Source of the DNA: a virus
Reading direction: 5' to 3' (one strand)
UHGV virus genome: UHGV-0394570
DNA: 13,411 bases
The notes under the pieces were generated by a model. That model searched no databases and was not told the origin of the DNA. It saw nothing but the letters and a program-made list of their open reading frames with translations. The position numbers and the translations under genes were made by a program. Positions 2,254-8,787 of the stretch are shown one piece after another. How positions within the stretch are numbered: position 1 is the first letter of the stretch; each line of letters opens with the position of its first letter.

Positions 2254-2432
2254 CAGCTAACTGATACCAGGCTAACCGTCTGGTGTTTTCTTTTTCAGCA
2301 ACGGGAAAACAACAACCACAACACCAGCCACCAGCATCCCATCTGCCAGCACTGACATTATCCGGCTGCTGAAGTCCACCATCACGACAAGAAACAGCAG
2401 AACTACCACAATGGCCAGGCGCAGTTTTACCG

Positions 2433-2864
2433 TCACAGGTGATTCTCCAGACGAAGGCCCAGAACACCGGCTATCTCTTCCAGCACCTTGCGCTCTTCCG
2501 GCTCAATTTCGCCATCTGATTCCGCAATGGCCACCGCCACATCCAGTACATCTTCCGCTTCTCGCATATCGTGTTTCACGTCCTCGATCTCACGTAACGC
2601 TGCACGACGACCTATTTTGAAGTTGGTGTCCAGCTGACCAGTGATGGTTGCGCTAATCGCATTAATTTCTGACGTAAACGCTGACAATGCAGGTTGGTTA
2701 CGCAGTACCTGTTCGATCTTCGCTTTCTCGGAAGCCTCACACTCACCATCTGCATAAGCCACCAGGTATGCAGCGTTAATCACCGCCTGGGCCAGATCGC
2801 GTTTTTCAAACTTTTTAATTTCCGCTGCCGCTCTGCGGGTTTTCTTTTTGAAGATTCCAAACAT
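2433..2864 (-). CDS. TerB-like (tellurite-resistance TerB domain) protein, 143 aa
   Basis: ATG at 2864-2862 with SD AAAGGAACG upstream; the track start at 2936 is a non-ATG extension. Two ADG...E motifs typical of TerB domains (AYADGECEASEKAKI and AESDGEIEPEERKVLEEIA). Confidence 0.65.
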   Translation of the reverse strand: MFGIFKKKTRRAAAEIKKFEKRDLAQAVINAAYLVAYADGECEASEKAKIEQVLRNQPALSAFTSEINAISATITGQLDTNFKIGRRAALREIEDVKHDMREAEDVLDVAVAIAESDGEIEPEERKVLEEIAGVLGLRLENHL

Positions 2865-2994
2865 CGTGACGTTCCTTTGGGTGGGTGAGCCAACGCCCGG
2901 GAGCGATCTGCCCACAGAGAAAGTCACACTGACCACTCCGTAAGCTCACCCCCGAAAGGCTCTGTGGTTGATATGCGCCGGGCGTGGCGCGGAT

Positions 2995-3019
2995 ACAAAA
3001 AAGGCCGCCAATAGCGACC
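2995..3019 (-). terminator. Intrinsic terminator after the 68-aa ORF
   Basis: Minus-strand RNA GGUCGC-UAUU-GGCGGCC (one G-U pair) followed by UUUUUUGUAUCC. Core shares 15 identical nt (GATACAAAAAAGGCC, 2992-3006) with the terminator at 3588-3613. Confidence 0.55.
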
Positions 3020-3053
3020 TCAGTTACGGGATTATTCTGGGGTTAAACGACTG

Positions 3054-3260
3054 TTACTCCCAGACAAAATCATCACTTCCTGTTCGATGCGAGCCATAGT
3101 GAACCTCGTACTTATCTCCCATCTTTCTTGCTTCCGTTTCTGCGTCTTCCTCTGTCGCAAAAACCCCAACAAGATGCCAGGGCGAGCTTCTTACCACAGC
3201 CCAACCTTTAACCCATCCTTTGTTGTCCTTATCTTCCATTAACACTTCAGAAACAAACAT
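3054..3260 (-). CDS. Hypothetical small acidic protein, 68 aa
   Basis: ATG at 3260 preceded by AAGGAG with 6-nt spacing; stop TAA 3054-3056. Translation MFVSEVLMEDKDNKGWVKGWAVVRSSPWHLVGVFATEEDAETEARKMGDKYEVHYGSHRTGSDDFVWE. No family recognised. Confidence 0.5.
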   Translation of the reverse strand: MFVSEVLMEDKDNKGWVKGWAVVRSSPWHLVGVFATEEDAETEARKMGDKYEVHYGSHRTGSDDFVWE

Positions 3261-3312: not shown

Positions 3313-3537
3313 TCAATAAAGTGGCTTCAATTTTGCCTTAATGATCAAATCAGGGTGATTGACGGAATCGTACACCACCTCAATATTTTCATCCGTGGCG
3401 TCGATAAGATATTCTTTTACATAAGGACCTGTTGATTTTCCATGAAATACATCTTCAACAAGTACACTCTCCCCCTGAACAACACGAAAACTAACTTCTG
3501 TTTCGAACGGACCAATCGTCACCATCAGTTTTTTCAC
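3313..3537 (-). CDS. Hypothetical small acidic protein, 74 aa (GTG start) or 70 aa (ATG at 3525)
   Basis: AGGAGG 4 nt upstream of GTG at 3537; in-frame ATG at 3525. Translation MKKLMVTIGPFETEVSFRVVQGESVLVEDVFHGKSTGPYVKEYLIDATDENIEVVYDSVNHPDLIIKAKLKPLY. No family recognised. Confidence 0.5.
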   Translation of the reverse strand: MKKLMVTIGPFETEVSFRVVQGESVLVEDVFHGKSTGPYVKEYLIDATDENIEVVYDSVNHPDLIIKAKLKPLY

Positions 3538-8386: not shown

Positions 8387-8542
8387 TTACTTCTCAGATT
8401 CGTAGTCTACGAAGACAGCGACCTCCGTCTGGCCGGTTCGGATTCGTACCTCGCAGAGGTCTTTCCTCGTTACCAGTGCCGTCACTATGACGGTTAAACA
8501 GATGACAATCAGGGCGATTAACATCGCCTTTTGCTGCTTCAT
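8387..8542 (-). CDS. hok: Hok/Gef-family type I toxin, 51 aa
   Basis: MKQQKAMLIALIVICLTVIVTALVTRKDLCEVRIRTGQTEVAVFVDYESEK: N-terminal TM helix and conserved Cys pattern, near-identical to recalled HokD/RelF. The track ORF (8599) is an in-frame 19-codon upstream extension from another ATG. Confidence 0.85.
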   Translation of the reverse strand: MKQQKAMLIALIVICLTVIVTALVTRKDLCEVRIRTGQTEVAVFVDYESEK

Positions 8543-8787
8543 AGCCTGCTTCTCCTTGCCTTTCGGCACGTAAGAGGCTAACCTACATGTGCAAAGCATG
8601 AAATTGGCCTCAGATTAATGTTAAGCGTCTTGCCGGACGCGTAATGTTAACTGGGGCTTTTCTCTGTCTGCCTTACGGTGGCATGCCCGAGGCAGACAGC
8701 CTCAAGCACCCGCAGCAATTCTACTTAACTCTCGCTTTACCGCAAACCGTTTTTACCCGATATGGGAATCCCCATATCGCAATGAAA

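Follow-up and report, generated by a model that had tools for sequence, protein, structure and literature searches.

A conserved pseudoknotted leader predicted to pair with the Shine-Dalgarno sequence of a phage TerB gene and of other late-operon cargo

Why does a phage gene for a small TerB-domain protein carry a long structured leader, and does that leader have anything to do with TerB? The question arises in a 13,411-nt stretch of the virus genome UHGV-0394570 (the window), for which the initial annotation described a stand-alone TerB-like gene and suggested regulated expression of a stress or phage-response function. Checked on the minus strand, the sequence features claimed there are real and their coordinates correct. 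The leader measures 126 nt and occupies window positions 2990-2865 (minus strand) ahead of the TerB gene (Table 1). Our preferred reading, to which we give a probability of roughly 0.6, is that it forms a cis-acting pseudoknotted 5' leader in which the Shine-Dalgarno sequence (SD) is held in a long-range helix that would control translation of tciA and tciB.

Table 1. Features of the leader and of the tciA/tciB cassette (window coordinates)
Feature	Position	Strand	Remarks
Terminator-like hairpin and T-run	3001..3021	-	Found by scan; 9-pair stem, then TTTTGTAT; directly upstream of the leader
H0 hairpin GCGCC-ACGCCC-GGCGC	2975..2990	-	Loop 2984-2980 supplies the 5' arm of kissing helix K
P1 5' strand CCACAGAG	2960..2967	-	Pseudoknot with 2912-2919; inverted repeat I3
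Anti-SD strand CCTTTCGG	2952..2959	-	Pairs with SD AAAGG and with CC two nt upstream of the SD
P2 5' strand GGGTGAGCT	2943..2951	-	Arm 1 of the repeat in the initial annotation; inverted repeat I1
P3 5' strand CGGAGTGGTC	2931..2940	-	3' part alternatively in small apical hairpin P4 (2934-2922)
P1 3' strand CTCTGTGG	2912..2919	-	Within the apical loop of the P2/P3 stem
P3 3' strand GATCGCTCCC	2899..2908	-	Alternative partner: P2 5' strand (a:b)
K site GGGCG	2894..2898	-	P3/P2 junction; partner is H0 loop CGCCC; inverted repeat I2
P2 3' strand GGCTCACCC	2883..2891	-	Arm 2 of the repeat in the initial annotation
Shine-Dalgarno AAAGGA	2873..2878	-	Pairs with CCTTT in the conserved fold
tciA, 143-aa TerB-domain protein	2433..2864	-	ATG 2864, stop 2435-2433; Pfam, PHROG and PDB matches
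tciB, 54-aa DUF3927 protein	2272..2436	-	Two hydrophobic stretches; Pfam PF13064, PHROG 1470

The TerB gene is ordinary phage cargo, one half of the known tciA/tciB (TerB + DUF3927) pair, and since PGAP and PHROGs already assign these names the protein side is routine annotation. Its TerB identity was confirmed by a significant match to Pfam PF05099 (59.1 bits against a cut-off of 24.4, E=6.6e-16; residues 26-138 on profile positions 2-109 of 118), by a full-length match to PHROG 632 (positions 1-143/143, E=9.7e-69) and by a match to the TerB structure PDB 2JXU (E=5e-8, residues 14-137 on 20-144). Of the two ADG...E motifs originally named, the first is as described (YADGECEASE, residues 36-45), whereas the second has SDG rather than ADG (ESDGEIEPEE, residues 115-124). 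The gene does not stand alone: the GTG start of a DUF3927 ORF (2436-2272) overlaps the tciA stop (GTGA), the product of that ORF matches Pfam PF13064 (E=5.8e-22) and PHROG 1470 'TciB-like' (E=1.1e-23), and a TciB-like ORF lies immediately 3' of TerB in 225 of 258 loci. No room is left for a tciC-like third ORF in the gap after tciB, where only 18 nt separate its stop (2272) from the next gene start (2253). It is correct that other ter genes are missing nearby, as there is no terZ/A/C/D/E/F gene among the window ORFs (13.4 kb) and the annotated homologous region of prophage Sp10 of E. coli Sakai contains phage genes only, without terZACDEF. A defense-system assignment was dropped: PADLOC defense models gave the TerB protein a best score of 14.3 bits (E=0.0038, PDC-S48, 35 residues) and the DUF3927 protein no match, and NCBIfam returned only a sub-threshold DjlA hit (27.6 versus 162 bits). 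The TerB-type cassette is present in 824 of 5426 complete E. coli genomes.

Phages P1, P7 and D6 likewise have a TerB gene with an overlapping DUF3927 gene beside phage tRNA genes (tciA-tciB(-tciC)). The TerB fold and the acidic DG...E motifs are common to the window protein, to these phages and to TerB of the terZABCDEF operon (Klebsiella, PDB 2JXU), but the terZ/A/C/D/E/F partners of that operon are missing at the window cassette, as is the third small gene, tciC, of P1. The P1 genes tciA/B/C were non-essential in a CRISPRi screen and are dispensable cargo (PMC10695390), and their names, 'tellurite/colicin resistance/inhibition of cell division', rest on homology only (PMC9603915, PMC10695390). 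The soluble TerB-fold domain and the small tciB protein probably act jointly at the inner membrane, late in infection.

We then turn to the leader. As modeled, its fold comprises six helices, with two pseudoknots and an SD:anti-SD helix among them. The H0 loop would kiss the P3/P2 junction (K), the strand upstream would pair with the apical loop (P1), and the stacked P3-P2 stem would extend into the anti-SD:SD helix (CCTTT:AAAGG). Two elements had been recognized at the outset, an 8-bp inverted repeat ending 4 nt from the SD and a GC hairpin right after the upstream terminator, and both are present. The repeat core is GGGTGAGC at 2951-2944 and GCTCACCC at 2890-2883, the latter separated from AAAGGA by ACCC, with the ATG standing 8 nt past AAGGA; the hairpin (GCGCC-ACGCCC-GGCGC, 2990-2975) follows the terminator-like hairpin at 3021-3001. 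The description of a structured leader is supported, but it was incomplete, since the repeat and the hairpin are two (P2 and H0) of the six helices. Beyond I1, the leader contains the perfect 8-nt inverted repeats I2 (2893-2900/2978-2985) and I3 (2912-2919/2960-2967), and P2, K and P1 are thus three inverted repeats of at least 8 nt visible in the window sequence itself. We estimate that about 130 nt would contain an 8-bp repeat by chance ~0.1 times and a 5-bp hairpin ~0.5 times. Singly, the repeat and the GC hairpin are non-significant, and their reality therefore rests on conservation and covariation among homologues.

To assess covariation, we scored a 44-pair pseudoknotted model on our main alignment of 40 distinct leaders (A3) against 500 shuffles. 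In A3, 95.7% of cells are paired (89.8±0.3 in shuffles), 27 of the 44 pairs change on both sides (11.3±1.6) and 113 cells carry double changes (30.8±4.1); none of the 500 shuffles matched any of these values, with the reservation that the leader sequences are related and shuffle tests overstate significance. Slid controls on the same alignment are 31-48% paired. A3 was segmented by hand in 12 sequences, because indels of the divergent groups end up in the wrong place under plain MAFFT and covariance-model alignment, and we checked the resulting bias against unfitted alignments. RNAalifold predicts H0 and the SD:anti-SD helix on an unfitted MAFFT alignment (A1). On a model-made alignment of 83 distinct sequences (A4), whose covariance model had no P1 or K, these two helices reach 96.3% pairing and 53 double-change cells (versus 9.1±2.4). 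Considered singly, H0 is 99.5% paired on A3 and has double-sided change at 5/5 stem pairs (GCGCC/GGCGC, ACATC/GATGT, CTGTC/GACAG, GCGTC/GACGC, CCGCC/GGCGG). P1 is 98.1% paired on A3 and 94.9% on A4 (CCGTAGAG:CTCTACGG, CCATGGAG:CTCCATGG, CCGCAGA:TCTGCGG, CCACAA:TTGTGG, CACAGAA:TTCTGTG), and the corresponding values for K are 98.0% and 98.6% (CGCCC:GGGCG, CGCTC:GAGCG, GGCTC:GAGCC, TGCCC:GGGCA, TTCTCG:CGAGAA, TCTCAC:GTGAGA). On A3, P2 is 96.6% paired, and P3 is 87.3% paired with double-sided change at 9/10 pairs and 32 double-change cells (13.2±2.8 in shuffles), figures that are inflated for both helices in the 12 divergent members, which were gapped with the model in mind. P2 is almost invariant across the TerB leaders; the repeat is conserved and co-varies in the wider family, with compensation before HNH genes (AAATGAGCC:GGTTCATTT, ATGAACC:GGTTCAT) and before ant (GATGA-CC:GGTTCATC). 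P1 directly adjoins the anti-SD strand, without a linker, and P1, P3, P2 and the SD helix may all together be sterically strained in the model; to accommodate them, the fold may have to bend where P3 meets P2.

By sequence comparison, the leader is a member of a widespread structured RNA family that is also found ahead of ant, KilA-N and HNH genes, with covariance-model scores of 141 bits for the window and 73.8, 72.2 and 50.7 bits for the KilA-N, ant and HNH leaders, respectively. It is present in Stx phages (933W, Sakai Sp prophages, BP-4795), in P22-like Salmonella phages and, ahead of TerB, in virulent Erwinia and Salmonella jumbo phages (Machinavirus). Its TerB type occurs in 824 and its ant type in 820 of the complete E. 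coli genomes (set of 5426), and Sakai prophage Sp10 has two leader copies within one late operon, at chromosome positions 1940997-1941129 and 1945420-1945557. The predicted fold is conserved and compensated across the lambdoid prophages and the Machinavirus jumbo phages. Not every phage TerB gene has the leader: with search filters off, none was found at tciA of P1, P7, D6 and pJN2-26, and TerB loci 30-50% identical (Serratia, Pseudomonas and others) have none. Since tciA of the phage-P1 type, unlike that of the window, does without the leader, it is not required for TerB function. Because the same leader stands before ant, KilA-N and HNH genes, its logic would concern late-operon cargo rather than a TerB-specific stress response. 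Thus, of the function first suggested, the regulated leader is supported and the TerB-specific logic is not.

This distribution also bears on the idea that the conserved element acts as DNA, either as a boundary or linker that helps lambdoid phages to recombine homologously and exchange cargo, or as a protein operator, with RNA structure incidental. Conserved boundary sequences are a known idea in lambdoid phages, and the leader does mark exact homology break-points: it is ~83% identical before TerB alleles with 40-44% protein identity, homology ends at the ATG, and the same leader is joined to divergent TerB alleles and to other genes. In addition, a truncated copy (H0 and P1a only) stands ahead of a different gene at locus L155, and in PPompW prophages ISEc20 (IS110 family) adjoins a truncated leader at about window position 2949. 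However, a linker should keep its sequence, whereas the arms here change on both sides with complementarity kept (the 27/44 pairs above), G-U pairs are tolerated in the mRNA-strand sense only, and the leader is also found in virulent jumbo phages with other flanks. We consider a DNA-level role very improbable.

The helix most directly connected with translation is the SD helix. It is 98.9% paired on A3, with compensatory changes at 2/7 pairs (CCTTT:AAAGG to CTTTT:AAGAG, plus R:Y covariation; pair counts CG35/UA3/UG2 and AU27/GC10), and it is kept in the ant, KilA-N and HNH variants. As the SD would be unavailable in the conserved fold, cargo translation would be off by default, and opening of the fold would turn it on. 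In a candidate open state, the G-rich strand 2957-2947 would pair with the pyrimidine strand 2906-2896 instead of GGCTCACCC, freeing the SD; the trigger might be a protein, an RNA, an RNase or the kinetics of co-transcriptional folding. The open and closed states are near one another in computed energy. The nested MFE is -57.3 kcal/mol compared to -46.6 for the nested part of the conserved fold, outside of which the pseudoknot duplexes P1 and K have energies of -12.2 and -10.0 kcal/mol. This alternative pairing (a:b) is 92.3% paired versus 44-57% when slid, with 6 double-change cells only and changes that are almost all one-sided (G-U/G-C), and it could arise simply because two G-rich strands lie opposite two pyrimidine strands. 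A single-sequence nested MFE fold (-70 kcal/mol, z=-2.24) was dropped, its central helix GCUUACGGAG:CUCUGUGGGC being 72% paired across homologues; its outer helix GAGCC:GGCUC is invariant and hence uninformative, and we retain its a:b helix solely as a candidate for the alternative state.

Translational control by structure at the initiation region has phage precedents. Lambda cIII mRNA adopts two alternative structures, of which RNase III favors the translatable one, and the leader of T4 gene 32 contains a pseudoknot. The window leader resembles both in that an alternative or pseudoknotted structure at the initiation region would set translation, but their sequences and architecture are different and each serves one gene, whereas the present family is shared by four or more classes of gene, with a maximum of two genes per operon. 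For Gifsy-1 IsrK/anrP, Hershko-Shalev et al. reportedly described in 2016 an inactive antirepressor mRNA that is activated in trans by an sRNA. There a prophage antirepressor is silenced by mRNA structure, and the ant-type leaders likewise precede antirepressor genes; in contrast to IsrK/anrP, for which alone an activating sRNA is identified, the ant leader is without any Rfam match. If SD pairing does control translation, late-operon cargo would have its own layer of control below Q-dependent transcription, and such cargo includes antirepressors able to induce co-resident prophages.

From what transcript would the leader come? A promoter scan from 3000 to 2864 found no promoter-like site, and a sigma-70 promoter of the leader's own was dropped, the sequence TTGTAT-17 nt-CATATC being weak by eye, unconserved and missing in jumbo phages. 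Because the stretch from the upstream terminator to the ATG contains no sigma-70-like promoter, we infer that the leader RNA is made within a read-through transcript, which would be the Q-antiterminated late transcript in lambdoid phages and the tRNA-cluster transcript in jumbo phages. The only intrinsic terminators that the scan found on this strand are at 3021-3001 and 3613-3596. No attenuator was found in the leader, where P2 runs into ACCCAAAGGAAC and no U-tract terminator precedes the start codon. A coding leader or N-terminal extension (GTG 2936, 167-aa ORF) was rejected, as most variants have in-frame stops, in most cases 1-20 codons ahead of the ATG, and frame-breaking indels. Among family members, a stable hairpin with a T-run ends just before H0 in 65 of 76 distinct upstream contexts, and in the jumbo phages tRNA-Cys takes the place of the hairpin and T-run. 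That a terminator hairpin, long hairpin or tRNA nearly always precedes the leader would also suit an element for RNA processing or stability, that is, a cut site in the late or tRNA-cluster transcript (RNase III in the long P2-P3 stem, RNase E or P beside the upstream hairpin or tRNA) or a protective 5' structure for the cargo mRNA, in which case SD pairing would be relieved through cleavage, not refolding. The interrupted stem of roughly 25 bp in the leader and the service of unrelated genes in polycistronic late operons fit such a role, and RNase III-dependent activation has precedents in T7 early mRNAs and in the cIII and N leaders of lambda. A simple RNase III site, however, needs neither the pseudoknots K and P1 nor a compensated SD helix, and we judge this explanation unlikely.

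Another explanation is a true riboswitch, in which binding of a metabolite, ion or nucleotide signal to an aptamer would lock the SD-occluding fold (OFF) and gate the cargo by host state. Compact pseudoknotted folds that integrate the SD are known from OFF switches of the SAM-II and preQ1-II type, and the leader is like SAM-II, SAM-V and preQ1-II/III in having a compact pseudoknot with the ribosome-binding site in a conserved helix, implying a translational OFF switch. The strong covariation of a conserved structure, the two near-isoenergetic states and the occurrence in temperate and virulent phages alike point the same way. In contrast to those classes, the leader has no sequence or model similarity to them and no conserved unpaired pocket: conserved positions lie nearly all in helices, with the C of TTTC as the sole unpaired exception among invariant columns, and junctions j2, j3 and j4, the bulge and the linker vary in sequence and length. 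The near absence of invariant unpaired nucleotides counts against a small-molecule pocket. Moreover, the genes behind the leader (TerB, Ant, KilA-N, HNH) are functionally unrelated, without a common metabolic theme, and the Rfam riboswitch models give no match, even with the cut-off relaxed to E<=10. Altogether we find a metabolite-type riboswitch doubtful.

The leader family is absent from all 4227 Rfam families, and we found no paper describing it; at the gathering threshold, Rfam 15 has no match in the window or in four related loci, and at E<=10 it gives noise of 10-14 bits only. As a tentative extension of translational control by SD pairing, which we regard as possible if still rather unlikely, the leader could found a new class of sensor RNAs in phages, as a double-pseudoknot switch through which a signal from host or phage, be it a small molecule, an ion, a protein or an RNA, would gate translation of unrelated late-operon cargo, sometimes of two cargo genes per operon. 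Were this so, there would be a post-transcriptional checkpoint after Q antitermination, including on antirepressor synthesis and hence on prophage cross-talk, and it would extend to ~15% of the complete E. coli genomes and to Shiga-toxin phages, 933W among them. The leader bears on how EHEC prophages silence such genes and how phage 'morons' are expressed. It is small and modular (~130 nt, two pseudoknots), and the novelty lies in the RNA, not the protein.

Finally, a double-pseudoknot architecture typifies the twister and HDV-like ribozymes, and ribozymes are abundant in phages, so the leader might be taken for a self-cleaving ribozyme or else for a small RNA that is freed from the 5' UTR and acts in trans. 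This appears extremely unlikely, as there is no conserved unpaired catalytic core, no Rfam ribozyme or sRNA model matches and the 3' end of the leader is without a terminator. In addition, Hfq-CRAC has no peak at either leader copy of Sakai Sp10, in cultures that were presumably not induced. In favor of a small RNA, the moron region is rich in them, with the AgvB/AsxR anti-sRNAs lying there downstream of Q and PR' (PMC4104026) and STnc100 directly following tciB at locus L078. TerB is listed as a conserved neighbor of PasA and PasC (bioRxiv 10.64898/2026.05.13.724894). AgvB/AsxR, PasA-D and STnc100 share the neighborhood of the leader downstream of Q and PR', but they are short, terminator-ended, Hfq-bound and trans-acting and lie after a moron CDS or beside the holin gene, whereas the leader lies 5' of the gene it precedes, lacks a terminator of its own and does not appear in those lists. 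Identity with AgvB/AsxR/EcOnc, Pas or STnc100 is excluded by their differing positions, and no EcOnc peak is found at the Sakai Sp10 leaders. Duplexes of the leader with STnc100, computed without a control, have energies of -19 and -14 kcal/mol.

Every coordinate in the initial annotation proved correct when we re-checked the sequence, and its observation of a TerB-like gene behind a long structured leader is confirmed. The GC hairpin and the 8-bp repeat (GGGTGAGC at 2951-2944, GCTCACCC at 2890-2883) lie where it placed them, with AAAGGA 4 nt further on, and the 143-aa ORF runs from ATG 2864, 8 nt after AAGGA, to the stop at 2433. Its interpretation was partly right. The leader is structured, but the gene is not alone: a 54-aa ORF (2436-2272), starting at a GTG that overlaps the stop of TerB, had been missed, and the TerB gene sits in the known tciA/tciB cassette. 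Of the two ADG motifs described, the second is actually SDG. Two further perfect 8-nt inverted repeats were found by repeat search in the same 130 nt (2893-2900 with 2978-2985; 2912-2919 with 2960-2967). By our estimate about 0.1 such 8-mer pairs are expected by chance; single repeats are not beyond chance, and the case for the leader therefore rests on comparative evidence.

The ~126 nt from terminator to ATG are nearly constant upstream of TerB genes (101 loci compared), and they stay so where identity of the encoded TerB falls to 40-44%, for instance in Citrobacter, Pseudescherichia and Klebsiella phages. BLAST with the leader only gave ~83% identity before divergent TerB alleles, with homology stopping at the start codon, and 73-77% in Machinavirus jumbo phages of Erwinia and Salmonella, where it is flanked by tRNA-Cys and a terB-DUF3927 pair. 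A profile search of 258 loci found 226 leader copies, 100 of them distinct. Of 76 distinct contexts, 65 have a hairpin with a T-run that stops immediately 5' of hairpin H0; in jumbo phages a tRNA is found there. The leader is absent from P1-family tciA genes (P1, P7 and D6 searched).

Six helices were recognised by eye among the variants and then by counting (Table). P2, P3 and the helix that holds the Shine-Dalgarno sequence (SD) are nested, and K and P1 cross them to form two pseudoknots.

Table. Features of the window and helices of the leader (minus-strand sequences; helix counts from A3, a hand-segmented alignment of 40 distinct leaders), with leader copies before other cargo genes
Feature	Position	Strand	Observation
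Q antiterminator	6109-5567	-	upstream, with replication genes
DNA methylase	4975-3917	-	after Q
Three tRNA genes	3876-3627	-	after methylase
Terminator	3613-3596	-	after tRNAs
Two small ORFs ('the cassette' of the initial annotation)	3537-3313 and 3260-3054	-	between two terminators
Second terminator	3021-3001	-	terminator scan; just 5' of leader
H0 hairpin (GCGCC-N6-GGCGC)	2990-2975	-	99.5% of cells paired; 5/5 pairs change on both sides
K	H0 loop CGCCC 2984-2980 : GGGCG 2898-2894	-	98.0% paired; 5/5 change on both sides
P1	CCACAGAG 2967-2960 : CUCUGUGG 2919-2912	-	98.1% paired; 5/8 change on both sides
P3	2940-2931 : 2908-2899	-	87.3% paired; 9/10 change on both sides
P2 (repeat of the initial annotation)	2951-2943 : 2891-2883	-	96.6% paired; 1/9 change on both sides
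SD helix	CCUUU 2959-2955 + GG 2953-2952 : AAAGG 2878-2874 + CC 2881-2880	-	98.9% paired; 2/7 change on both sides
Sialate O-acetylesterase (nanS-p/yjhS-type)	2253-265	-	after tciB
P22_AR_N-type antirepressor, downstream of endolysin	L078 6138-6275		covariance model 72 bits
KilA-N protein, P22-like Salmonella phage	L113		covariance model 74 bits
HNH endonucleases	L148 3015-3154; L109		covariance model 51 bits; 20 bits

On A3, 95.7% of cells were paired under the whole model versus 89.8±0.3 after shuffling, 27 of 44 pairs changed on both sides versus 11.3±1.6, and double-change cells numbered 113 versus 30.8±4.1 (0/500 shuffles each), figures that are not probabilities since the leader sequences are related. 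Sliding the partners by 1-3 columns lowered pairing to 31-48% of cells. Compensation is seen in H0 (GCGCC/GGCGC, ACATC/GATGT, CTGTC/GACAG, GCGTC/GACGC), K (CGCCC:GGGCG, CGCTC:GAGCG, GGCTC:GAGCC, TGCCC:GGGCA, TTCTCG:CGAGAA, TCTCAC:GTGAGA), P1 (CCACAGAG:CTCTGTGG, CCGTAGAG:CTCTACGG, CCATGGAG:CTCCATGG, CCGCAGA:TCTGCGG) and the SD helix (CCTTT:AAAGG and CTTTT:AAGAG). Because gaps in 12 divergent rows of A3 were placed with the model in mind, alignment bias was checked in two independent ways. When a covariance model built from the nested helices alone, with P1 and K left out, aligned 83 distinct leaders, P1 and K were 96.3% paired, with 53 double-change cells versus 9.1±2.4 (0/500). On a plain MAFFT alignment, RNAalifold predicted H0 together with the long-range SD:anti-SD helix rather than the minimum free energy (MFE) fold of the single sequence. 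Such diversity of pair types at each position, together with register specificity, would be hard to explain without RNA structure, and we put the probability that the leader is a functional structured RNA at about 0.9.

Judged by this strong covariation, the leader is a real RNA family, and apparently an undescribed one. Rfam 15 gave no family match to it at the gathering threshold or at E<=10, and we found no description in the literature searched, coverage of which was partial, so that an earlier account in a subscription journal is possible. Identity with a published moron-region sRNA was rejected on position: AgvB and AsxR sit after the moron CDS (PMC4104026) and Pas sRNAs flank esterase and holin genes (bioRxiv 10.64898/2026.05.13.724894), whereas the present element is a 5' leader preceding tciA. 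No Hfq-CRAC orphan peak falls at the leader coordinates of the Sakai prophage Sp10, and a peptide-coding role was ruled out. SD-occluding structured leaders are a known kind of element; what is new is the architecture, the breadth of cargo genes and the distribution.

The same leader precedes antirepressor, KilA-N and HNH genes. These diverged copies retain H0, K, P1 and SD pairing and provide the P2 compensation missing in the TerB set (AAATGAGCC:GGTTCATTT, ATGAACC:GGTTCAT, GATGA-CC:GGTTCATC); the originally noted repeat is conserved, its arms changing together in antirepressor (ant)- and HNH-type leaders. Leaders of the ant type were found in 307 phage records, including 933W/EDL933-Stx, Stx2 II and BP-4795, and 820 of 5426 E. 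coli genomes carry them. Both types are present in the late operon of Sp10 (E. coli O157:H7), an annotated equivalent of the window with the same order (antiterminator, tRNAs, 'TciA/TerB-like protein', esterase, holin, endolysin, antirepressor): one before tciA (140 bits, chr 1940997-1941129; L262 4998-5130) and one before antirepressor ECs_1965 (74 bits, 1945420-1945557; L262 9421-9558). Two leaders in one operon suggest a shared regulator for several cargo genes.

The conserved fold places the SD within a compensated helix stacked on P2, and K and P1 link the P2/SD stem to H0 and the 5' flank. Since the SD is unavailable in this fold, the cargo genes would be translationally off by default, and the leader probably controls translation by SD occlusion. 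Such default silence would suit genes for an antirepressor, a nuclease and a membrane-active pair. The leader has neither a U-tract terminator of its own nor a sigma-70-like promoter (terminator/promoter scan). As no promoter follows the upstream terminator, leader RNA would be present on read-through transcripts, presumably made by Q-modified late transcription in lambdoid phages and, in jumbo phages, by transcription of the tRNA cluster. In a candidate ON state, the G-rich strand 2957-2947 would pair with the pyrimidine strand 2906-2896 (helix a:b) instead of GGCTCACCC, leaving the SD free. This helix is register-specific (92.3% paired versus 44-57% when slid), with changes nearly all one-sided G-U/G-C. 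The nested MFE is -57.3 kcal/mol and the nested part of the conserved fold -46.6, to which P1 (~-12) and K (~-10) duplexes are added before pseudoknot penalties; the two states are close in computed energy. We regard a two-state switch through a:b as tentative, and the SD might be freed by processing, for example an RNase III cut in the P2-P3 stem, instead of by refolding. Small-molecule riboswitch control ranks below kinetic, protein, RNase or RNA control, because invariant positions are confined almost wholly to helices, with variable junctions between them.

The 143-aa product is a TerB-domain protein, as first proposed (Pfam PF05099, 59.1 bits versus a cut-off of 24.4), and no other ter gene lies nearby. 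It matches PHROG 632 'tellurite resistance' end to end (E=9.7e-69) and the solved Klebsiella TerB (2JXU; E=5e-8). The 54-aa protein, with two hydrophobic stretches, is DUF3927/PHROG 1470 'TciB-like'. Together the two genes make up the tciA/tciB cassette, a name that comes from phage P1 and is used by GenBank for phage JLK-2012; PGAP names the products 'tellurite resistance TerB family protein' and 'DUF3927 family protein'. Of 5426 complete E. coli genomes, 824 carry the cassette (median 4 copies per positive genome), a TciB-like ORF lies directly 3' of TerB in 225 of the 258 loci collected, and 131 phage records contain a single-domain TerB gene, including P1/P7/D6, N4-like, Vibrio, Pseudomonas and jumbo phages. 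The TerB gene is ordinary, already known phage cargo. PADLOC returned no defence-system match; in P1 all three tci genes are non-essential by score (PMC10695390), and their names rest on homology only (PMC9603915). Translation of the soluble TerB-fold domain would be coupled to that of its small partner, which has two hydrophobic stretches; this partner, and the occurrence of the pair in both temperate and virulent phages, suggest that the pair acts at the inner membrane in lytic growth and does not serve the lysogen alone. A role in tellurite resistance as such is unsupported. In P1, P7 and D6, tciABC also lies amid phage tRNA genes (Asn and Thr upstream, Ile downstream), and TerB-tRNA linkage recurs in P1-type phage-plasmids, lambdoid phages and jumbo phages.

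The window comes from a lambdoid, Stx-phage-like prophage and covers its early-right to late region; every gene is encoded on the minus strand. Neither small ORF has a Pfam family above cut-off. The first (3313-3537) looks like a gene remnant, judging by a PHROG 2571 match confined to positions 100-171 of 291; the second (3054-3260) is PHROG 4280, a family of unknown function. The tciB stop is 18 nt from the esterase start, and a plus-strand terminator-like hairpin was called at this junction (2263-2287). At this spot (2254-2290 in the window) related prophages carry convergent sRNAs: AgvB/AsxR (PMC4104026) and, by Rfam scan, STnc100 in L078 (3659-3857, 149 bits). The Rfam scan of the window found no such sRNA. 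The 5' part of the esterase gene is broken by an assembly gap of exactly 100 N (2116-2215), giving an X block in translation. A hok/sok-type toxin-antitoxin locus lies at 8537-8711 (minus strand; Rfam sok, RF01794, 117 bits), its sok match overlapping the 5' region of a 70-aa ORF (8387-8599, minus strand) that resembles a Hok toxin in its C-terminal part (MKQQKAMLIALIVICLTVIVTALVTRKDLCEVRIRTGQTEVAVF...).

In PPompW prophages (LC567818-LC567841) the leader is matched only over its 5'-most 52 nt (window 2949-3000), at a site annotated as ISEc20 (IS110 family); the leader appears to be cut at about 2949, inside the P2 5' strand. In L056 a different sequence stands upstream of the TerB gene, and an intact leader is found 2.5 kb off (331-463). 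The leader may be a preferred IS110-type target. A shortened copy (L155 797-871: terminator, H0, the P1 5' strand, then unrelated sequence) stands directly before another gene starting MDLSKDVVDRYFSYDPKSGVLYCK and looks like a recombination scar. A T-to-G change at the equivalent of window 2948 (the T of GGGGGTGAGC) recurs in three leader backgrounds (L030, L066, L070, L072, L078, L080, L084). It turns GGGGGTG into a run of at least 7 G (13 in L066) with the loss of one P2 pair, and could stem from slipped-strand variation, recombination or sequencing error.
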